From positions 36,108 through 100,107 of the IMG/VR virus record IMGVR_UViG_3300033120_000387: a DNA stretch of 64,000 nt; one strand, written 5' to 3'. The notes under the pieces were generated by a model. It made no database searches. It had not been told where the DNA came from and saw only the letters and a list, made by a program, of their open reading frames with translations. Shown here piece after piece: positions 1,707 to 14,037 of the stretch (positions are counted from its first letter, which is position 1; every line of letters starts with the position of its first letter). Both the position numbers and the translations under genes were made by a program. The DNA comes from a virus. Lineage: Duplodnaviria > Caudoviricetes.

Positions 1707-3704
1707 ATGGGAAACTTAACTCAACAATTAATTGACGGTATTAATATTATTGTTGATAAAAAAATAAAAAAAGCTGATTATGCAAGGATAAGAACAGGTC
1801 TTATAACGAGTATAAATGCAGATGGTACATATAATGTAATATTTGATAGTAAAAACATTACAAATGTTCCCTTTATTGGAAGTGGTACTTTATCTATTAA
1901 TTCAACCGTTAGGGTGGTAATTCCTGATAATCAACCTAATCAAGCAATAATTTTAGGCACAACGGTTGGTGGAAGTATTGTTAGTGGAGTCACAAGTGTT
2001 AATGGTATGACAGGCGATGTCGCTATGACTAAAAGCACTATAGGTCTTGGTAATGTAGATAATACATCAGATGTTGATAAGCCGATATCAATAGCCACAC
2101 AAAACGCTTTAAATCTTAAAGTAAATACATCGTTATTAGCTACGGTAGCCACAACAGGTAGTTATAATGACTTATCTAATAAACCTATTGTACCCACTAA
2201 AACAAGTGATTTAACTAATGATAGTGGCTATCAAACAAGTACACAAGTCGCTTCGAATATATCTATAGAAACATCTAACAGGCAAACAGCCGATAACGAT
2301 TTACAAGGGCAAATAACATCTAATGATACAGATATTTTAAATTTACAAAACACTAAGGCTAACATAACAGATATTCCTACTAAAATAAGCGAATTAACAA
2401 ACGATAGTGGTTTTTTAACCTCTATACCTACTGAATATGTAACTGATACAGAAATGCAAGCATATGCACAGCCAATAGGTGATTATGCTACTAATACTGA
2501 TTTAGGCACAAAACTACCTTTATCAGGTGGCACTATGACAGGTGCTATTAATATGGGTGGATTTGGTATAAACAACCTTCCTGATGCTACTACCAATCAG
2601 CAACCTGTTACTTTTAAACAATTAAGCGATGCTATATCGGGGTTGGGAAATGTATTTGATTTAAAGGGTGCATTGGCAACAGTATCGAATTTGCCAACAA
2701 CAGGTAATGCAATAGGTGATGTATGGTATGTTGAAAGTGAATCTGTTGGATATATATGGTTACAAGATACTACGGGAACTCTTAGATGGGAAAAATTTGG
2801 TCAAGAAATTGATTTAAGTGGATATATGACTAAAGCAGGACTGCTACAAACCATAGGTAGTGCAACTGATAATGCCATGTCGCAAAACGCAACTACAATA
2901 GCATTAGCCACAAAAGCCGATATTGAAGATTTATCTAATGTGGCTTTTAGTGGACTATACAGTGATTTAACGGGCGTGCCAACATCACTTCCTGCAAGCG
3001 ATGTATATTCATGGGCAAAACAGCCTACTAAACCGACATATACAAGTGCTGAAGTGGGATTGGGTAATGTGCCTAATGTAAACACAAATAATCAAACGCC
3101 TACATGGACAATATCAAGCACATTAGCAAATCTTGTAAGTGGCGAAACCTTAACAGTTGCTTTTGGCAAAATTGCAAAATGTATACAAACACTGATTAGT
3201 CATATTGCTAATGTGTCTAATCCTCACAATGTAACAAAAGCACAAGTGGAATTAGGGAATGCTGACAATACGGCTGATAGTGCTAAAAATGTATTATCGG
3301 CTACTAAATTGACTACATCACGAACAATAAATGGCGTTTTATTTAATGGTACAGCTAACATATCAACGCCTTTGGGTGGTAGTTCAGATGTTGCCATAAC
3401 ATCTCCTGTAAATAAACAGGTTTTACAATATAATGGAACTGAATGGGTTAATGAAGCCGTTCCTACAGGTGCAACATCTTTAGGGGATTTAACAGATGTA
3501 ACCCTAACATCACCTACAAATAGTCAAATTTTACAATATAATGGTACAGATTGGATAAATAGTACATTGCCAAGCGTAGATGTGGCAAATGCTGTAAAAA
3601 ACCAACAAAACCCAACTACATCTTTAAAAATGTGGTCAGGTACTTTAGCACAATATAACGCTATAACTACTAAAGATGCTACTACAGTTTATATGATTGT
3701 GTAG
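1707..3704 (+). CDS. Tail spike/fibre protein (N-terminal OB-like spike domain plus fibre repeats)
   Basis: Fibre-type motifs VTSVNGMTGDV, GLGNVDNTSD.DKPIS, TKTSDLTNDSG, NPHNVTKAQV. GGAGG RBS. Confidence 0.7.
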   Translation: MGNLTQQLIDGINIIVDKKIKKADYARIRTGLITSINADGTYNVIFDSKNITNVPFIGSGTLSINSTVRVVIPDNQPNQAIILGTTVGGSIVSGVTSVNGMTGDVAMTKSTIGLGNVDNTSDVDKPISIATQNALNLKVNTSLLATVATTGSYNDLSNKPIVPTKTSDLTNDSGYQTSTQVASNISIETSNRQTADNDLQGQITSNDTDILNLQNTKANITDIPTKISELTNDSGFLTSIPTEYVTDTEMQAYAQPIGDYATNTDLGTKLPLSGGTMTGAINMGGFGINNLPDATTNQQPVTFKQLSDAISGLGNVFDLKGALATVSNLPTTGNAIGDVWYVESESVGYIWLQDTTGTLRWEKFGQEIDLSGYMTKAGLLQTIGSATDNAMSQNATTIALATKADIEDLSNVAFSGLYSDLTGVPTSLPASDVYSWAKQPTKPTYTSAEVGLGNVPNVNTNNQTPTWTISSTLANLVSGETLTVAFGKIAKCIQTLISHIANVSNPHNVTKAQVELGNADNTADSAKNVLSATKLTTSRTINGVLFNGTANISTPLGGSSDVAITSPVNKQVLQYNGTEWVNEAVPTGATSLGDLTDVTLTSPTNSQILQYNGTDWINSTLPSVDVANAVKNQQNPTTSLKMWSGTLAQYNAITTKDATTVYMIV

Positions 3705-5195: not shown

Positions 5196-6389
5196 ATGAG
5201 TTTAACACAACCACTTTTATTAACACAAACCGCATTTGATGCCACTAACGCACAAACATTCCTATTTAATGTAGTAGGTGGTTCACAAGTAGTTAAAAAC
5301 ACACTTAAAATAACAGATAATACAACAAATATCGTTGTATATGAACAAACACAAACAACCTATACTTTTGAACATATATTGCCTGCAAATACATTAACAA
5401 ATAGCAAGAATTATGTGGCGCAAATACAGACAATAGATGCTAATAATGATACTTCACCTTGGTCGAATATTATAACCTTTTATTGTTATGCAACACCTAC
5501 ATTTACCATATCGAATATGCCGACAGGTAATATAATAGCCAACTCAAGCTATGTGTTTCAAGCTACATATAATCAAGCAAGTGGAGAATTATTAAATTCC
5601 TATGATTTTATTTTATATGACTCATCTAATAATCAGATAAGTACAAGTGGTGTACAATATGTGGGAAGTAGCACACCTCCTCCTACAATCATATCTCATA
5701 AATTTAGTGGGTTTGAAGATAATACTATATACAAAATAGAAGTAAAAGGTGTGACCGCTAACGGAACAATTATCACAACTGGTATAATACAATTTATCAC
5801 TAATTATACTGTCCCTATCTCTTTTGGCGCATTTGAATTAGCTAATAATTGTAATGATGGATATATAAATATTATTAGTAATATGTTGTCAATAAAAGCA
5901 CAAAGTAATCCTTCTCCACCTATATATATAGAAGGTGAAGAAGTTGATTTAGTTAATACAGGCACATATGTAGAATGGATAGAGGGCTTCGATATACCTA
6001 ATGATTTTGTCCTAAGAGTATGGGGTAGAGCCTTTATGTTAAACAATGTTATATGTATAGCTAGCAACCCTGATATGCCGAACGAAAAATTGCTTTTAAC
6101 ATATCATTATGATAATGTTAATAAAGAGGTTTCTATTATAGTAGAATATATCACAGGAGGTCAATCATCTTTCTTTTTTAGTAACGCAATAACAGTGCCG
6201 ATAGCAAAAGACCAATTGTTTGTATGGGTAAAAAAAATAGGTGATAATATTACGGTAAATCTTGATGTAACCTATGTTAGTCCTGATAGAACTTATATAT
6301 GGTATGATGTAAATAATAGAAACTACACATTCCAAGATGTGAATAATCTTAATATAACATGGGCGCAAGCAAATCAAGGAGGTTGGTAA
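5196..6389 (+). CDS. Minor tail protein with fibronectin type III-like domains
   Basis: Beta-rich, FN3-like signatures (SPWSN, YKIEVKGV), within the tail operon. Confidence 0.55.
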   Translation: MSLTQPLLLTQTAFDATNAQTFLFNVVGGSQVVKNTLKITDNTTNIVVYEQTQTTYTFEHILPANTLTNSKNYVAQIQTIDANNDTSPWSNIITFYCYATPTFTISNMPTGNIIANSSYVFQATYNQASGELLNSYDFILYDSSNNQISTSGVQYVGSSTPPPTIISHKFSGFEDNTIYKIEVKGVTANGTIITTGIIQFITNYTVPISFGAFELANNCNDGYINIISNMLSIKAQSNPSPPIYIEGEEVDLVNTGTYVEWIEGFDIPNDFVLRVWGRAFMLNNVICIASNPDMPNEKLLLTYHYDNVNKEVSIIVEYITGGQSSFFFSNAITVPIAKDQLFVWVKKIGDNITVNLDVTYVSPDRTYIWYDVNNRNYTFQDVNNLNITWAQANQGGW

Positions 6390-7241: not shown

Positions 7242-8636
7242 ATGAATATTACACAGAATATGTATAATGTGCTTTTACAACAGCAAAGAATTTTACATAT
7301 TAAAGTTAATTTGCTTAACTTCCAATTCCTAACAGTAAATGAATTGAGTGGCTTGGTTTTAAATCCTCCACAAATAGATATAAATGCTAATAGTGATATA
7401 AGGCGCACTTGTGATATAGAAATGGTAGTAAAAGAAAGATTATATGATATTGAGGTTGGAGGGCAGATTTTTATTGATAAATTTGTTCAAGTATATTTTG
7501 GTATTGAAGATATTAGAAATAGCAATGAAATAGTGTGGTTTAATCAAGGAATATACCTCATAAATGCACCAAGCGTTCAATACAATGCTACTACTAATAC
7601 ATTGTCATTTCAAGGTGTAGATTTAATGGCTAAATTGACAGGAATGAGAAACGGCTACTTAGAGGGTATACCAAGTGTAATCCCTAAAGATAGTGTAATT
7701 AGAGATGTAATAATTAGCACATTAGCATTAGGCGGTTTTAATAAATATATAATCAATATTAAAGACACCGATACCAAGACACCTTATGAGATTAAATTAG
7801 ATATAGGCGCAACTGTATATGATATATTAGCTAAATTGAAAGAGATATATAGTGCTTATCAAATGTATTTTGATATAGATGGGGTTTTCCATTATGAGCC
7901 TTATCCAACTGATGAAAATGCACCAATACTTATAGACAATTCAATGTGGGATAGATTGTATATATCTCACACAAATGCAGTTGATTTTGAGCAAGTAAAA
8001 AATGTTGTCGAGGTTTTAGGTAAATCATACGATATACAACATTATGGAGCGACAACAACAGTTAGTGGAAGTGAGTATACTACTAATATTGCAAGTCTAA
8101 GTGCTTTATCTAACGATATACTTATAGGGTTTACAGCACCAAGCGTTGTAGTAAATCCTACATTAAAAATCAATAATTTTACAGCATATCCTATTGTAAA
8201 TGAAGATGGCACAAGTGCTGTTATACCCGAAGCTAACAAATATTATGTTGTCCAATATAAAGACAGTAAATATATATTCATGGGATATCAGCAAGTTAGA
8301 GCAACCGCAAAAGATGAAAATCCTGACAGTCCATTTTATGTAAATGGAACAACAGGCGAAATTAGAATTGTTTTGAGTGGAGGAGAATTTGACAATATAC
8401 CAAGCAATAAACTAGCTTTAGATAGAGCAAAATATGAGATATATATGCGGTCAAGAGTTAATGATAGTTTAATAATAGAAACTATACCTATATATTTTGC
8501 CGATGTATATCAATTGATATCATTTAAGTTTCCTGATGATGTGGAAACTTATTTATATATGATACAATCAATATCGACAAGCGATACACAAACAATAACT
8601 TGTTCAAGATTTTATCCCCTATATCCTTTTTCATAG
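7242..8636 (+). CDS. Tail tip/baseplate hub protein (Tal/DUF5048-like)
   Basis: SDIRRTC, DLMAKLTG.RNG.L and YFDIDGVF motifs of phage hub proteins. Confidence 0.6.
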   Translation: MNITQNMYNVLLQQQRILHIKVNLLNFQFLTVNELSGLVLNPPQIDINANSDIRRTCDIEMVVKERLYDIEVGGQIFIDKFVQVYFGIEDIRNSNEIVWFNQGIYLINAPSVQYNATTNTLSFQGVDLMAKLTGMRNGYLEGIPSVIPKDSVIRDVIISTLALGGFNKYIINIKDTDTKTPYEIKLDIGATVYDILAKLKEIYSAYQMYFDIDGVFHYEPYPTDENAPILIDNSMWDRLYISHTNAVDFEQVKNVVEVLGKSYDIQHYGATTTVSGSEYTTNIASLSALSNDILIGFTAPSVVVNPTLKINNFTAYPIVNEDGTSAVIPEANKYYVVQYKDSKYIFMGYQQVRATAKDENPDSPFYVNGTTGEIRIVLSGGEFDNIPSNKLALDRAKYEIYMRSRVNDSLIIETIPIYFADVYQLISFKFPDDVETYLYMIQSISTSDTQTITCSRFYPLYPFS

Positions 8637-8669
8637 GGGATAAAAATACATAAAGAAAGGAATGATTAT

Positions 8670-10127
8670 ATGAGCAATATAACAACACCGTTTCAATTGA
8701 CGGATAATTTTAATATGACCGAATTTAATGGTATGTTAAATGATATAAATACAAATACGATAGCACCAAATATAGATATAAGCACAACAACTGCTAATTT
8801 ATATGATACAAATAATGTAGATACAGCATTACAAATGATAGCAATAGCTAAAACGACCATAACGCTTACTTCAACTGCTGTGGGCAAGGTGGCAAGAATT
8901 GAGCAAGGAGCTATTATTTTAACACAAACAGCGACAGGGAGCACCATTGTTTTTGATGTGCCCAAAACAGGAACTTGGAATATATATTATGATAATATTG
9001 GTGTAGGAAGCGCAAATATTAATGTAGGGGATAGTTTTGTTAAAGATGTAGGTTATAAAATAATGACATTAAATATAGACCTTACTAACTCAAATCCTGC
9101 AACTTGCGCTACTTATGCAGACGATGCAGTCACTATGACGGCAGGTGGCAGTGATTGGGATGCATGGTTTGGTATTAAGCCATGTTTATTTAAAAACGGT
9201 GCGGTAGTAGGGTATTTAAATCCTAATAATTTTACACAGTTTGCAGATGGTTCTGCCGCCGACATCACAAGTGGCAATGCAGGCGATGTTATGATTGAGT
9301 TTCCGAGGTTAGGTTTGAATATTACTACTGTTGGCAACACACTCACAATATCTATGACAAACAATCCTAACAATAGTAGCTTTAACTACTTGGCACATAC
9401 AAGAGGCTCGACAAATAAAGATTATTTTTATCTTGGAGCATACAAAGGTTATACGATGGGTGGTCAAATTCGTTCCCTTAGTGGTAAAGCACCAACAACT
9501 TCACAAACCATTGGAACATTTAGAACTCAAGCCCAAGCAAATGGGGCGGGTTATGAACAAAGTGGCTTTTATCAGCTTATATTTAGACAAGCAATGTACT
9601 TGTTAAAATATAAGAATCTTGATTCACAGACCGCACTTGGTAGGGGTTATGTTGATGGTAACAGTGCAGCAATTGCTACTGGTGGCACAAATGCCAAGGG
9701 CATGGACTTTGGTGAAACAACTGGTAAACTACAAATGAAGTTATTTGGGCTTGAGGACTTCTGGGGAAATGTTCATGAATGGATTGATGGATTAGTATCC
9801 ACCTCTACTTGGAATATGCTGACAACTACAGATAATTTTAATGATACCGGTGCAGGGTATATGGATAATGGTCAAGGAGCAAGCGCTAATATTGGAAACT
9901 ATATGAGTAAACCTCAAGGAACAACTAAGACTGGGTTTATTGCAAAAGAAGTAACTGGTTCGGGTAGTACTTACTTCTGCGATTATGCGAGTTTGTATTC
10001 TTCCTGTGTTGCGAGTTTTGGCAGTGGTTGGGGTGATGCTTCGGGTGCGGGTGCTTTCTGTTTGCTGGTGTATATTGCCGCTTCGTATTCGGGTGCTGCT
10101 GTCGGCGCGCGCTTGATGTTTTTATAA
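8670..10127 (+). CDS. DGR target: receptor-binding tail fibre with C-terminal C-type-lectin (CLec/FGE-like) domain
   Basis: GLEDFWGNVHEW motif and terminal GARL. The last 48 codons form the VR. Confidence 0.9.
   Translation: MSNITTPFQLTDNFNMTEFNGMLNDINTNTIAPNIDISTTTANLYDTNNVDTALQMIAIAKTTITLTSTAVGKVARIEQGAIILTQTATGSTIVFDVPKTGTWNIYYDNIGVGSANINVGDSFVKDVGYKIMTLNIDLTNSNPATCATYADDAVTMTAGGSDWDAWFGIKPCLFKNGAVVGYLNPNNFTQFADGSAADITSGNAGDVMIEFPRLGLNITTVGNTLTISMTNNPNNSSFNYLAHTRGSTNKDYFYLGAYKGYTMGGQIRSLSGKAPTTSQTIGTFRTQAQANGAGYEQSGFYQLIFRQAMYLLKYKNLDSQTALGRGYVDGNSAAIATGGTNAKGMDFGETTGKLQMKLFGLEDFWGNVHEWIDGLVSTSTWNMLTTTDNFNDTGAGYMDNGQGASANIGNYMSKPQGTTKTGFIAKEVTGSGSTYFCDYASLYSSCVASFGSGWGDASGAGAFCLLVYIAASYSGAAVGARLMFL
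9981..10124 (+). repeat. DGR variable repeat (VR)
   Basis: Ungapped match to 10154-10297 with 31 mismatches, all opposite TR adenines. Confidence 0.97.
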
Positions 10128-10153
10128 GTTAATAATTTGGGTAATGGAAGTTA

Positions 10154-10297
10154 GATTATACGAATTTGAATTCTTCCTGTGTTACGAATTTTGGCAGTAA
10201 TTGGAGTAATACTTCGAATACGGGAACTTTCTATTTGCAAGTGAATAATACCACTTCGAATTCGAATGCTAATATCGGCACGCACTTAATGTTTTTA
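10154..10297 (+). repeat. DGR template repeat (TR)
   Basis: 43 adenines and 11 AAT codons in the VR frame. Lies between target and RT. Confidence 0.97.
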
Positions 10298-10401
10298 ATA
10301 TTGACCCACGTGCAACCATTACCCTGGCTCTTGCCAAAACATAAAAAGTAAAAAAGTTGTACTGGTACTCAATAAGGAAGGTTCAACATCAAAAAACATC
10401 A

Positions 10402-11571
10402 ATGGAGGTCAGGAACATTAAAAGATACGGAAACATATATGAGAAAATATATGATATAGAAAACTTAAAACTCGCACATAAAAATGCGAGAAAAGATAAG
10501 ACCTGCTATAAAGAAGTTAAAATGGTGGATGCTAACGAAGATTATTATTTAAGTGAGATTCAGAAGATGCTTAAAAAAGAAACTTATGAAGTTAGCACAT
10601 ATGAAATTTCAGTGATAAATGACAAAGGTAAAGAAAGAGAATTATGTAAATTACCTTACTATCCAGACAGAATTATTCAATGGGCTATCATGTTACAGGT
10701 TGAGCATATATTCATGCAGGTGTTTACAACATTCACCTGCGCTTCAATAAAGGGTAGAGGTATTCATAAAGCTTCATCTTTGTTAGATAAATATATGAAA
10801 GATAAAGAAGGTACTAAATATTGCTTAAAGGTTGATATTAGTAAGTTCTATCCAAACATTAACCATAGTATCTTAAAAAGATTGATACGAAAGAAATTCA
10901 AGGATAAAAGATTACTTAGTATTTTAGATAAAATAATAGAAAGTACTCCAGAAAATAAAGGTGTCCCAATAGGTTCATATTTATCTCAGTTTCTTGCAAA
11001 CTTCTATTTAGCATATTTGGACCATTGGCTAAAAGAGGTAAAGAGAGTTAAGTATGTTGTTAGATATATGGATGATATAGTTATTCTACATCATTCGAAA
11101 GAATATTTACACCAATTAAAACGGGAAATGGATATATACTTGGATAATGAACTCAAGTTAAAAATCAAAGATAATTGGCAGGTGTTCCCAACCGCAATTA
11201 GAGGTATAGACTTTGTAGGTTATAGACATTTCTATGGTTACAAATTATTAAGAAAATCTACTTGTAAAAGATTTAAGAAACAAATGCCAAAAATTAGAAA
11301 GAAATGTAGCCAAGGTCATAAATTAAATTATTCAGAATGGTGTTCAGCTAATTCTTATAAGGGGTGGTTAATATGGTGCAGTAGTTATAGATTAAGTAAA
11401 AAATACATTGACCCTATTCAAACTTATTTAGATGAATATTATCAAAAGCAAATTAAAGAAAGGGAGGTAATGCCTTATGAAAGACATGGGAATAGTACAA
11501 GGTTCTGTCGCGCAAGCGCAACCTATAATAATAAACAAAGACACAGTATATGTGCATACAAACATCGTTAA
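10402..11571 (+). CDS. DGR reverse transcriptase (start ATG 10402 or ATT 10417)
   Basis: KRYGNIYEKI N-terminus, PYYPDRIIQWA, KVDISKFYP, GVPIGSYLSQ (DGR-type SQ motif), YMDD, GIDFVGY. Confidence 0.95.
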   Translation: MEVRNIKRYGNIYEKIYDIENLKLAHKNARKDKTCYKEVKMVDANEDYYLSEIQKMLKKETYEVSTYEISVINDKGKERELCKLPYYPDRIIQWAIMLQVEHIFMQVFTTFTCASIKGRGIHKASSLLDKYMKDKEGTKYCLKVDISKFYPNINHSILKRLIRKKFKDKRLLSILDKIIESTPENKGVPIGSYLSQFLANFYLAYLDHWLKEVKRVKYVVRYMDDIVILHHSKEYLHQLKREMDIYLDNELKLKIKDNWQVFPTAIRGIDFVGYRHFYGYKLLRKSTCKRFKKQMPKIRKKCSQGHKLNYSEWCSANSYKGWLIWCSSYRLSKKYIDPIQTYLDEYYQKQIKEREVMPYERHGNSTRFCRASATYNNKQRHSICAYKHR

Positions 11572-11728
11572 AATAGCAAAAGATAATCAAGGTAAGCCTG
11601 TGGATAATTTATATCAATACAACGAGGTGCAATATGATAAAGATGAGTATATTAATTTAACAGTTGAAAAAATAAATTCACAGCAAACAATAATTGACGA
11701 TATCTTAGTAGCAATGGTGGAGGTGTAA
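11477..11728 (+). CDS. Small tail-fibre-associated protein (XkdW-like, putative chaperone)
   Basis: GGGAGG RBS. Typical of small genes between a fibre gene and XkdX. Overlaps the RT 3' end. Confidence 0.5.
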   Translation: MKDMGIVQGSVAQAQPIIINKDTVYVHTNIVKIAKDNQGKPVDNLYQYNEVQYDKDEYINLTVEKINSQQTIIDDILVAMVEV

Positions 11729-11729
11729 A

Positions 11730-11885
11730 ATGAGCGCAACAGCAAATGCTTATAAGAATTTATATGATAAAGAGAGAGTAGATAAAGTCGGACTTCGTAG
11801 AGCAGTTATGAGAAAACTTATAACAGCAGAAGAATACCAAGAAATAACAGGTGAAGTTTACAATATAGATAATCAGGAGGTATAA
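11730..11885 (+). CDS. XkdX family protein (51 aa; absent from the ORF track)
   Basis: Manual translation: MSATANAYKNLYDKERVDKVGLRRAVMRKLITAEEYQEITGEVYNIDNQEV. ITxEEYxEITG is the XkdX signature. Confidence 0.8.
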   Translation: MSATANAYKNLYDKERVDKVGLRRAVMRKLITAEEYQEITGEVYNIDNQEV

Positions 11886-11886
11886 T

Positions 11887-13050
11887 ATGACTACATCAGC
11901 AAAACAGCAAGATTTAGATAGGCAATTGCCTTTAATGGGTGTGGATAGATGGCGCAATCAAAACTACAATAAGCGCACTATAAATGTATGGAATATAGAA
12001 AATGATGCAGGACATGGTGCTTGCACAGGTCAAATTGTACTTGATGTTAATCCATATGCTAATGTGTATTTTGGCGCAATAAGTGGATTATTCGACAGTG
12101 AAAAAATCTTAGATTTAACAGTACATGATGATAAAAATGGGATTGACTTTAAGGGAGTTTCGGCAATAGAAGATTTTATAAAAAAGTATAACATAGATAT
12201 AATAACATCATCTCAAAAAGGCTTTACACATTGCAAGGAGTGGAATGATTTATGGGTTGAATTAGTAAAAAAATACAATCTTGTAATTTGTCAGTGTGCG
12301 GCTAATGAAGGGTATAATCCAGAAGATAGCAAAGATACAACAGACGCAAAATTCCCGACTGAAATATCTCATGTTGTAGCCGCCTTAGAATATATAAATT
12401 ATGCAAGTGGTGCTGTAATACAAAGAGCAAATTATTCAAGCGTAGGCGAGGATTTAGATTTTGCACAACTTGTATTATGGTATAGTGGCACATCAGCGGC
12501 AACTCCCGCATTAGCAGGTCAAGTAAGTATGATTATGCAAAGATATGGTAAAATGAGTTTGCAAGAATCTCATCAATATCTTAAAATGATATCCACAGAT
12601 TTAGATATAAAAGGGCATGATAAATTTACAGGTTGGGGTATGCCAGTATTGCCTAATTGGGATAAAAAATATATCACAATGACAACTAAAAGTAATACTT
12701 ATTATGTTGATGGTGAAGCCAAAACAATGGACACAAAACCTATAAATAAAGAAGGTAGAATATTCGTGCCTATACGAGTAATATCTGAGTCATTGGGCGC
12801 AGAAGTTCAATGGGAATTTAATGCCGACAAATCCATAAAAGTTACTATCACAAAGGGCAATAACATCATAGTTTTAAATACAGGTAATGAAATAGCATAT
12901 ATAAATGGCAAGAAAATATACATTGATGTTGCGCCATTTATAGACAGCAACAATCGTACACTTGTACCAATTAGGTTTTTGGCTGAGTGCCTAAATTGTA
13001 GAGTAGATTGGATTCAGTCAGAAGCTAAGGTTCAAATATTGGAGGTGTAA
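11887..13050 (+). CDS. S8 subtilisin-like peptidase fused to a copper-amine-oxidase N-terminal (stalk) domain
   Basis: GHG, AANEG and SGTSAATP motifs. C-terminal GRIFVPIRVISESLGAEVQW / NRTLVPIRFLAECL. Confidence 0.8.
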   Translation: MTTSAKQQDLDRQLPLMGVDRWRNQNYNKRTINVWNIENDAGHGACTGQIVLDVNPYANVYFGAISGLFDSEKILDLTVHDDKNGIDFKGVSAIEDFIKKYNIDIITSSQKGFTHCKEWNDLWVELVKKYNLVICQCAANEGYNPEDSKDTTDAKFPTEISHVVAALEYINYASGAVIQRANYSSVGEDLDFAQLVLWYSGTSAATPALAGQVSMIMQRYGKMSLQESHQYLKMISTDLDIKGHDKFTGWGMPVLPNWDKKYITMTTKSNTYYVDGEAKTMDTKPINKEGRIFVPIRVISESLGAEVQWEFNADKSIKVTITKGNNIIVLNTGNEIAYINGKKIYIDVAPFIDSNNRTLVPIRFLAECLNCRVDWIQSEAKVQILEV

Positions 13051-13051
13051 T

Positions 13052-13681
13052 ATGGCTATTATATTTAATAGTCTGCCTGTCAAACCTTTAAGAATAACAA
13101 GTTATTACGGTAAAAGGAATACTAATATAAGTGGGGCATCTACTTTTCATGAAGGAATAGATTTAGGTTACAATAAATCTCTATCCCAAACCCCTATATT
13201 ATCTGTGGTAAGTGGTACGGTGTCTGATAATTATTGGAACGACTATCGGGGTTGGGTTATTGTTATAAATCATGGAGAATTTAAAACGCTATATCAGCAT
13301 TTAAAATCTCAATCACCTTTAAAAAAGGGCGATAAAGTTACCACAGGACAGCAAATAGGCATAATGGGTGATAGTAGTAATCCAAATAAATTAAACATAT
13401 CGACTCATTTACATTTTGAATTGATATATAATAATGAAAGCATTAACCCCTTGTATTATTTAAGAAATATAAAGGAGGTGGAAGATTTGACAAGAGAGGA
13501 AACGATAGCACTAATCAAAGAAATATTAGCATCACAAGATGTTAAGGCGTCAGATTGGGCGAAAAAATATTGGACACAAGCAACATCTGAAGGATTAGTT
13601 GACGGCACTCGACCAAGAGGATATCTTACAAGAGAGGAAATGGTTAAAGTGTTGTTGACGGAAAGGAGTAAAAGGAAATGA
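13052..13681 (+). CDS. Endolysin, M23 peptidase with C-terminal SLH-like binding segment
   Basis: HEGID, TLYQHL and THLHFE motifs. C-terminal SDWAK..W...GLVDGTRP..TREE. Confidence 0.85.
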   Translation: MAIIFNSLPVKPLRITSYYGKRNTNISGASTFHEGIDLGYNKSLSQTPILSVVSGTVSDNYWNDYRGWVIVINHGEFKTLYQHLKSQSPLKKGDKVTTGQQIGIMGDSSNPNKLNISTHLHFELIYNNESINPLYYLRNIKEVEDLTREETIALIKEILASQDVKASDWAKKYWTQATSEGLVDGTRPRGYLTREEMVKVLLTERSKRK

Positions 13682-14037
13682 TAGAGCAAATAGTAACAAA
13701 TTTAATATGGGTAGGTTATGCTATGGGGATATTATCTATAGCATGGCTATCTAATTTTGTGCTTAGTATATATTGTAATATAAAAGTGCTGAATGAGTTA
13801 TTTGATATAAAAAGAATGATTAGCGGCATTGAAAAGCTATTAGCATTATGTATAGGCATAGGTCTTTTAAGCCTTGTAATCACCGTATTTCCTATTTATA
13901 TGGCATATGTAGGCATTCCTATTGCCGAAGAATATATAAGCGTTTTTAGCATAGGTACAATAGTCGTTTTGTTCGGTAATAGTACGATAAAGTATACTAC
14001 ACAAGCATATAATACCTTGAAGGACATTTTGAAGTAG
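13678..14037 (+). CDS. Holin
   Basis: 119 aa with about three hydrophobic segments, overlapping the endolysin stop. Confidence 0.7.
   Translation: MIEQIVTNLIWVGYAMGILSIAWLSNFVLSIYCNIKVLNELFDIKRMISGIEKLLALCIGIGLLSLVITVFPIYMAYVGIPIAEEYISVFSIGTIVVLFGNSTIKYTTQAYNTLKDILK

Follow-up and report, generated by a model that had tools for sequence, protein, structure and literature searches.

In the survey of Wu et al. 2018 (PMC5758913), 29% of the diversity-generating retroelements (DGRs) were without accessory genes, being reduced to a core of template repeat (TR) and reverse transcriptase (RT) termed architecture A; one lineage, Lineage 3, was avd-less, and no remotely encoded avd was found for accessory-free DGRs. 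A DGR of the crAss-like phage LMMB, placed in Lineage 3 by its authors, has the same cassette of target gene, variable region (VR), TR and RT (PMC7290462). Here we describe a DGR in a 64,000-nt stretch of viral DNA (hereafter, the window), which comprises bases 36108-100107 of the 100,107-bp IMG/VR record IMGVR_UViG_3300033120_000387, a genome rated complete by CheckV. The element is an accessory-free target-TR-RT DGR (architecture A1), and thus of a kind already described. We consider it very probable that this DGR is functional and diversifies the tip of a tail fibre. An initial annotation had reported an intact DGR of the BPP-1 type acting on a C-terminal C-type lectin (CLec) domain; the intact element and its target are borne out by RT phylogeny, protein fold, gene context and VR variants found beside an invariant TR. 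The BPP-1-type layout is not, because no avd lies in the 29 nt between VR and TR or elsewhere in the genome, and the order is target-TR-RT.

Results

Differences between the repeats are confined to template adenines

The VR (9981-10124) and the TR (10154-10297) align without gaps over 144 nt at an offset of 173 nt, and their likeness stops abruptly at either end. All 31 mismatches occur at TR adenines (24 A>G, 6 A>T and 1 A>C), which would be expected of 31 random mismatches with a probability of about 5e-22, given the 43 adenines of the TR (hypergeometric); the other 12 adenines are unchanged in the VR. The VR forms, in frame, the final 48 codons of the open reading frame (ORF) at 8670-10127, and it is the one and only VR partner of this TR in the 100,107-bp genome. 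Its GC content is 51%, as compared with 34% in the TR, the expected footprint of A-to-G/C replacement, and with 30.5% in the window as a whole. The TR contains 11 AAT codons and no AAC codon, 39 of its 43 adenines occupy the first or second codon position, and none of its codons can be turned into a stop by substitution of an adenine. The coordinates, the gapless alignment and the adenine-only mismatches of the initial annotation were reproduced exactly, and a codon-by-codon check agreed with its account of AAT usage and stop avoidance. Its figure of 31 changed adenines among 43 is correct as a count, but three of these (TR positions 127, 131 and 135) are a fixed difference between the repeats rather than diversified sites.

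These three adenines read G in all five related VR copies that we compared, namely that of the window and those of the related loci L004-L007, and no VR site 3' of position 121 varies among the five copies. By analogy with BPP-1, the 3' ends of VR and TR would correspond to the initiation of mutagenic homing (IMH) element and its TR counterpart, IMH* (PMC5758913). Taken together, the fixed G sites and the IMH/IMH* arrangement suggest that cDNA information is transferred only 5' of approximately position 124. A GC-rich inverted repeat following the VR, a feature of BPP-1, was not seen on reading the 29-nt spacer. The features of the cassette are collected in Table 1.

Table 1. Features of the DGR cassette in window coordinates
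Feature	Position	Strand	Remarks
Target gene, 485 aa tail (fibre) protein	8670..10127	+	phrog_5302 'tail protein' at 5e-59
C-type-lectin-fold domain (predicted), DGR variable-protein type	9048..10124	+	AlphaFold2 (AF2) model and structure matches
Variable region proper (VR positions 1-123)	9981..10103	+	holds all sites varying between related phages
IMH-like VR 3' end, GGCGCGCGC TTGATGTTTTTA	10104..10124	+	three fixed differences from TR; GC run unusual in a 30.5% GC genome
P1 5' arm GGGTAATGG	10139..10147	+	between target stop codon and TR
Template repeat TR, 144 nt, 43 adenines, 11 AAT codons	10154..10297	+	3' end IMH*-like
IMH*-like TR 3' end, GGCACGCAC TTAATGTTTTTA	10277-10297	+	counterpart of VR GGCGCGCGC TTGATGTTTTTA
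Candidate primer-side strand CGTGC	10309..10313	+	pairs with TR GCACG 10278-10282 in the minimum free energy (MFE) fold; two nt before P1
P1 3' arm CCATTACCC	10316..10324	+	pairs with 10139-10147
Rfam RT-17 motif (RF03020) match, TR-RT spacer	10320..10399	+	37.8 bits, E 1.6e-5; gathering score 40.4
Hairpin P2 (TGGC-TCTT-GCCA), then A-rich run AAACATAAAAAG	10325..10348	+	covariation; hairpin proper 10325-10336
DGR reverse transcriptase, 384 aa	10417..11571	+	from ATT at 10417, aligned with relatives' start codons

Related phages share the template and differ in the variable region

A scan of viral contigs yielded 55 loci with a related RT. In four of them (L004-L007), the RT proteins are 94-95% identical to that of the window (tblastn) and the TR is identical at 144/144 positions, and the VRs all differ from one another and from the window VR at TR-adenine positions, with two single non-adenine changes, both in L004, as the exceptions. 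Forty other related loci carry the same adenine-only pattern between their own TR and VR. Two of the four contigs, L005 (1-51) and L007 (1-47), end inside the VR.

Public assemblies were compared with the window over 8600-11800, as contigs rather than raw reads. In the run X23, which contains 99% of the sequence words of the stretch, the contigs are interrupted at 9995 and a second time within 10103-10132; the depth is 3.2 over the 138-nt VR piece, approximately 40% of that of its flanks (8.5-9.1). These breaks and the low depth fit the presence of several VR variants within one sample. In the run X24, from the same study, seven contigs are identical to the window over most of 8741-11800, and the sole contig that spans the VR shows 17 differences, of which the 7 displayed are all at TR-adenine sites. 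The runs X1 (soil) and X7 (landfill) share 9714-11502 with the window at 98-99% identity and have at least 20 VR differences, all at TR-adenine sites, with none in the TR. The TR is unchanged in all four assemblies. The test that the initial annotation had proposed, for adenine-restricted polymorphism beside an invariant TR, was therefore passed at the level of contigs, both in the four related loci and in the public assemblies. As a practical matter, assemblies that end or fragment inside a VR are a signature of VR heterogeneity in metagenomes.

In the window, A>G accounts for 77% of the changes. Across 26 related TR/VR pairs, changed AAY sites read G, T and C in 49%, 32% and 19% of cases, with 42% unchanged, and the adenines outside AAY read G in 85%; the latter lie mostly in ACN threonine codons that read GCN alanine in nearly all VRs, plus the IMH. 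Opposite template adenines, the BPP-1 enzyme in vitro misincorporates A at 22%, C at 18% and G at 12% (PMC7826257), from which we derive coding-strand substitutions of 43% T, 34% G and 22% C. An A>G excess as a property of the RT was considered and rejected, the excess being mostly accounted for by the non-AAY sites. Selection for scaffold alanines thus explains most of it and leaves a modest G bias.

The diversified tip has a predicted DGR-type C-type lectin fold

Residues 1-126 of the target protein constitute a lineage-specific N-terminal part, and residues 127-485 a conserved domain of receptor-binding type. More than 1600 homologues match the C-terminal 74% of the protein, and their N-termini are interchangeable (tail-collar fibre PF12571, PF22337 or collagen); profile searches of the window copy against Pfam and NCBIfam gave no match. 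The AF2 model of the full-length protein was poor (predicted local distance difference test score, pLDDT, 61) and gave weak fold matches only. Modelling residues 127-485 from a 63-sequence alignment gave a pLDDT of 97.1 and a predicted template modelling score of 0.95, and this model matched TaqVP (5vf4; Foldseek E 2e-11) with a Z of 25.7 and a root mean square deviation of 2.8 Å over 256 residues, followed by TvpA (Z 14.7), Mtd (Z 12.8) and then the formylglycine-generating-enzyme family. The modelled domain thus folds as TaqVP, TvpA and Mtd do, and the model supports the C-terminal CLec domain of the initial annotation as a tip with a DGR-type C-type lectin fold, of which the VR would form the C-terminal part.

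Across 40 homologues, the mean entropy was 1.93 bits in the columns that correspond to TR adenines at codon positions 1 or 2, as compared with 0.83 bits in the rest of the VR and 0.86 bits in the rest of the domain. Columns of AAT codons reach approximately 3 bits in the family alignment, so that hypervariability at the family level falls exactly at the AAT codons. Judged from homology and position, host-range switching, as the initial annotation had proposed, is a plausible consequence.

The reverse transcriptase belongs with those of DGRs

The RT carries the motifs IGSYLSQ (10969-10989) and YMDD (11065-11076), the former fitting the (I/L)GxxxSQ signature of motif 4, so that both of the motifs in the initial annotation could be located in the ORF. 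It matches PF00078 at 6e-21 and phrog_1423 at 3e-121, and it falls well short of the NCBIfam cut-offs for group II (TIGR04416, 121 bits vs 300) and retron St85 (50 vs 235) enzymes. The best solved structure was 8ub7_A (E 6e-31), labelled in the database simply 'Reverse transcriptase' (328 aa) and, from its length, probably the BPP-1 bRT; behind it ranked group II intron RTs, the best of them at 2e-18, and then DRT and Cas-linked RTs with still weaker scores.

We placed the enzyme in a maximum-likelihood tree (quick search) of 27 RTs, a set without an authentic retron RT. A branch with a Shimodaira-Hasegawa-like approximate likelihood ratio test (SH-aLRT) value of 100 separates the group II RTs from the side that contains BPP-1 Brt, VHML, hankyphage p00, the crAss-like phage cr56_1, Psychrobacillus phage Perkons and the window RT, so that the placement asked for in the initial annotation speaks for a DGR enzyme. 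Within that side, the window RT falls inside a set of viral-metagenome RTs that each have an adenine-only TR/VR pair of their own, and clusters with, or is sister to, the RT of cr56_1. It is 59% identical to the Perkons RT and 30% identical to the BPP-1 RT (tblastn), and it is the only RT gene in the complete genome. Read with table 11, the annotated RT gene of cr56_1 (L062:3001-4008) contains 5 in-frame stops, as would fit recoding of stop codons in this phage.

The start of the RT in the window is ambiguous between ATT 10417 and an in-frame ATG at 10402. The starts of the relatives' RTs (ATG, TTG or GTG) coincide with ATT 10417 of the window and of L004, which lies 8 nt after a GGAGG; the ATG at 10402 overlaps this Shine-Dalgarno sequence and has none of its own. 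L005-L007 are near-identical to the window over this stretch (10402-10431).

A predicted helix encloses the template and adjoins a conserved hairpin

Folding of 10128-10420 yielded, in both the MFE and the centroid structure, a long-range helix (P1) that closes the whole TR and directly adjoins a hairpin (P2), on which it would stack. A helix equivalent to P1 was present in 16/17 relatives tested, with at most 5/300 shuffles as stable; its arm sequences are unrelated between lineages, and its 3' arm always stands 0 nt before P2. P2 was paired in 100% of cells (17 distinct sequences), with compensatory changes at 3/4 pairs and none of 500 shuffles matching its score, and the A-run that follows it is conserved. 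The spacer between TR and RT matches the Rfam motif RT-17 just below the gathering score in the window and, at 43.7-63.7 bits and therefore above that score, at the same place in 8 related loci; one relative matches Rfam RT-18. Of the RT motifs described by Weinberg et al. 2017 (PMC5737381), only RT-10 was tied to a DGR, that of BPP-1, and the others were speculated to serve DGRs.

In the BPP-1 cPRT Stop, as revealed by cryo-EM, sequences on either side of the TR form a duplex, next to which stand a short stem-loop and then adenosines, and this element is predicted in 207/278 Avd-containing DGRs (bioRxiv 10.1101/2023.10.23.563531). By comparison with that structure, the RNA predicted for the window is of the same design, here without Avd. 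Only 13 nt separate the TR from the P1 3' arm, which leaves no space for an Avd-binding stem-loop. The MFE pairing of the candidate primer-side strand with the TR would put initiation at approximately TR G124, in agreement with the IMH boundary, and inspection by eye showed comparable pairings in some relatives. A scan for promoters and terminators gave nothing above the shuffle expectation, with no terminator on the + strand between target and RT. Between the end of the TR and the P1 3' arm, six relatives (L014, L017, L018, L020, L022 and L023) have a further stem-loop, GC-rich and roughly 5-10 bp long. It is not found in the window and sits at the position of the BPP-1 Avd-binding stem-loop, yet the space between VR and TR in these relatives is too small for an avd.

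The cassette is a sharply bounded unit without a recognizable Avd

The window and L004-L007 resemble each other in nucleotide sequence within 9053-11502 alone, a span from the first residue of the conserved tip domain to the end of the conserved RT that takes in 26 nt at the start of the overlapping downstream ORF; X1 and X7 likewise diverge from the window outside the stretch that they have in common with it. In L006, the cassette follows baseplate and tail genes, and its tip belongs to a 670-aa fibre whose N-terminus is different. Shared within these boundaries by otherwise unrelated phages, the tip domain behaves together with the TR and RT as a single exchangeable module.

A search of the complete genome (100 kb) that admitted hits down to E<=1 matched neither PF05635 (the Avd family) nor HRDC, and the small ORFs near the cassette gave no Avd match. 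There is no ORF between the parts of the cassette; the accessory families MSL and CH1 were not searched by profile. The spacing of VR and TR is 29 nt in the window and 29-180 nt in near relatives. In a more distant sub-clade (L035, L037, L039, L040, L042 and L048), with RTs 47-49% identical and targets of 123-161 aa, L037 and L042 have a 125-137-aa ORF between VR and TR (phrog_11581, with no Pfam match), which could be an unrecognized accessory gene; the other four members share the gap of approximately 480-540 nt seen in these two.

An 83-aa ORF (11477-11728) overlaps the end of the RT gene, starting 95 nt before the RT stop codon, and follows the RT in 24 related loci. Its product is only 54% identical where the RTs are approximately 95% identical, it gave no match in the phage collection, and a homologue stands directly behind a fibre gene in an Oscillospiraceae prophage that has no RT there (L075). 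We therefore rejected it as a substitute for Avd, on its low identity relative to the RT and its occurrence without one, and read it, from its distribution, as a probable fibre-associated backbone gene. It is followed by a 51-aa ORF with a weak XkdX match (24.3 bits vs a cut-off of 28.2). In related phages and prophages, the tail-fibre genes are trailed by this ORF pair (11477-11885 in the window) whether a DGR is present or not.

Upstream of the cassette are tail and fibre genes, including the fibre-like 1707-3704 and 7242-8636, and downstream come, in order, the 83-aa ORF (phrog_18126), the XkdX-like ORF, an S8 peptidase-like gene and an M23 peptidase. The upstream fibre genes and downstream peptidases place the cassette at the junction of fibre and lysis genes. 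The region 11887-14037 encodes an S8 subtilase-like protein with a copper-amine-oxidase N-terminal domain, followed by the M23 peptidase and a 119-aa hydrophobic holin-like ORF; the S8 protein is an unusual first member of a lysis cassette. Related sequences came from metagenome runs whose labels name anaerobic digester, landfill, manure, fermentation and soil; those of low share (0.21-0.23) hold the conserved cassette only and carry little habitat information beyond their labels. Target homologues occur in Vallitalea and Oscillospiraceae genomes, which suggests an anaerobic member of the Bacillota as host.

Discussion

In the mechanism that we propose, a single transcript probably covers the target gene, TR and RT, and in the folded RNA the stretch immediately 5' of the TR would pair with one 19 nt downstream of the repeat (P1). 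This helix would stack on the tetraloop hairpin P2, behind which come adenosines. The RT would bind this folded RNA and begin cDNA copying in the GC-rich 3' part of the TR (approximately position 124), misincorporating at adenines, and the cDNA would then replace the VR up to the IMH-like GC element. Up to approximately 28 codons could thereby be changed at the C-terminal face of the CLec-fold domain, altering what the phage binds. Co-transcription, the priming site, Avd independence and the effect on host range are all steps that we infer.

Several points weigh against a functional, accessory-free DGR that retargets the phage. A change of host range is argued from homology and position. The RT-17 score of the window (37.8) is just below the Rfam gathering score (40.4), and a conserved priming duplex between TR and spacer, sought in 17 relatives, did not emerge consistently from simple folding. 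The evidence for VR heterogeneity within a sample is indirect, coming from contigs. Finally, the RT of BPP-1 is inactive without Avd (PMC6182149). This last point could mean that the window DGR is not self-sufficient and that an unrecognized helper, from a phage gene or the host, replaces Avd in trans. Poorly conserved Avd proteins may escape profile searches (PMC5758913), and the 83-aa ORF that overlaps the RT stop codon would be a candidate. We think such a helper unlikely, because the 83-aa protein belongs to the phage backbone, because the genome lacks PF05635 and HRDC matches just as remote avd genes were lacking in the accessory-free DGRs of Wu et al., and because the module common to unrelated phages stops at 11502 and contains nothing beyond the target tip, TR and RT.

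A fossil element, whose VR was diversified in the past and which no longer acts, appears very improbable to us. A single genome cannot show activity, and the dominance of A>G (24/31) could suggest old, selected changes; set against this are an intact RT ORF with all its motifs, intact RNA elements, a perfectly conserved TR beside VRs that differ between near-identical genomes (including two runs of one study otherwise identical over approximately 3 kb), and assemblies that break at the VR with reduced depth there. That the VR and TR are an ordinary diverged duplication next to a group II intron or retron enzyme has nothing in its favour beyond the weak similarity of the RT to group II RTs (TIGR04416), and is refuted by the adenine-only pattern, the VR variants, NCBIfam scores far below both cut-offs and the SH-aLRT 100 split; we give it virtually no credence. 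Of a functional DGR one may still ask what its product binds. A decoy, a mucus-like or biofilm ligand, or another virion role, in place of a host receptor, would be compatible with a target that has no Pfam family or tested homologue, with the other fibre-like genes upstream and with 126 N-terminal residues that are unique and poorly modelled. We regard this as distinctly improbable, since the target matches a phrog annotated as tail protein, its homologues have tail-collar fibre N-termini and stand after baseplate J / Gp48 genes and before lysis genes, and its nearest solved relatives include Mtd, the receptor-binding protein of BPP-1. A functional, accessory-free DGR acting on the receptor-binding tip of a tail fibre thus remains our preferred reading.

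The element is a textbook-quality example of an active phage DGR whose tip diversification is, on field evidence, ongoing, and as such it is ordinary. Modestly new are the link between the orphan Rfam motif RT-17 and the spacer RNA of a DGR, the covarying, cPRT-Stop-like design of duplex, hairpin and adenosines kept in a little-studied Avd-less lineage, and the sharply bounded, portable module of fibre tip, template and RT. With its RT and approximately 290 nt of RNA, the cassette is a compact candidate for asking whether DGR reverse transcription works without Avd. We tentatively go further, in a proposal to which we grant just short of an even chance: that the Avd-less lineage is a true two-component machine of RT and RNA, in which the RT-17-type spacer and the TR-closing helix form the cPRT Stop that BPP-1 builds with Avd, and that the 2.45-kb unit 9053-11502 is a plug-in module that moves between unrelated phages. 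If this is true, Avd is dispensable for the core of RNA-guided priming and stopping, and the cassette is a minimal natural template for programmable hypermutation.

Comparison with known systems

Architecture A1 DGRs have the same succession of target, VR with IMH, TR with IMH* and RT, no avd, one adjacent CLec-type tail-fibre target and few non-adenine changes. Among them, the crAss-like phage cr56_1 has the same avd-less target-TR-RT layout, in keeping with the clustering of its RT with that of the window. As an avd-less element whose RT is sister to that of a crAss-like phage, the window DGR would be a candidate member of Lineage 3. Differing from the architecture A DGRs described, the relatives of the window come from digesters, landfill, manure and Clostridia/Oscillospiraceae, and the 29-nt gap between VR and TR is unusually short.

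The closest cultured relative is Perkons (MT325768, ORF176-ORF175), with the RT identity given above and a target that is 40% identical. It has the VR-TR-RT layout, 32 adenine-only mismatches and the P1/P2 RNA elements, and differs in a 354 aa target, an 85 nt gap between VR and TR and other genes after the RT. Its DGR (L001:4856-7378, record 90877-93399, with the VR at L001:5780-5916 and the TR at 6002-6138) is complete and Avd-less; the public record annotates just a 'reverse transcriptase' and a hypothetical protein.

With BPP-1 (mtd-avd-TR-brt), the window shares adenine mutagenesis of a C-terminal CLec VR in a tail fibre, an IMH-like GC element, a TR enclosed by a duplex beside a short stem-loop and adenosines, and a homologous RT. 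Unlike BPP-1, it has neither an avd nor the space for an Avd-binding stem-loop, its spacer resembles RT-17 rather than RT-10, it uses AAT where BPP-1 uses AAC, and its RT is longer at the C-terminus (approximately 362 conserved residues vs 328). TaqVP of Thermus aquaticus (PDB 5vf4) is the best structural match over the whole 317-residue span, with its VR likewise at the C-terminal end of the CLec fold; the sequence identity is 17%, and TaqVP is a cellular protein rather than the tip of a phage fibre. RT-17 of Rfam (RF03020), like the spacer of the window, lies upstream of an RT gene and has the same hairpin and conserved A-rich and UGGUA segments; here, the motif would be the TR-RT spacer of an Avd-less DGR, and its 5' end would supply a strand to a long-range helix absent from the Rfam model.

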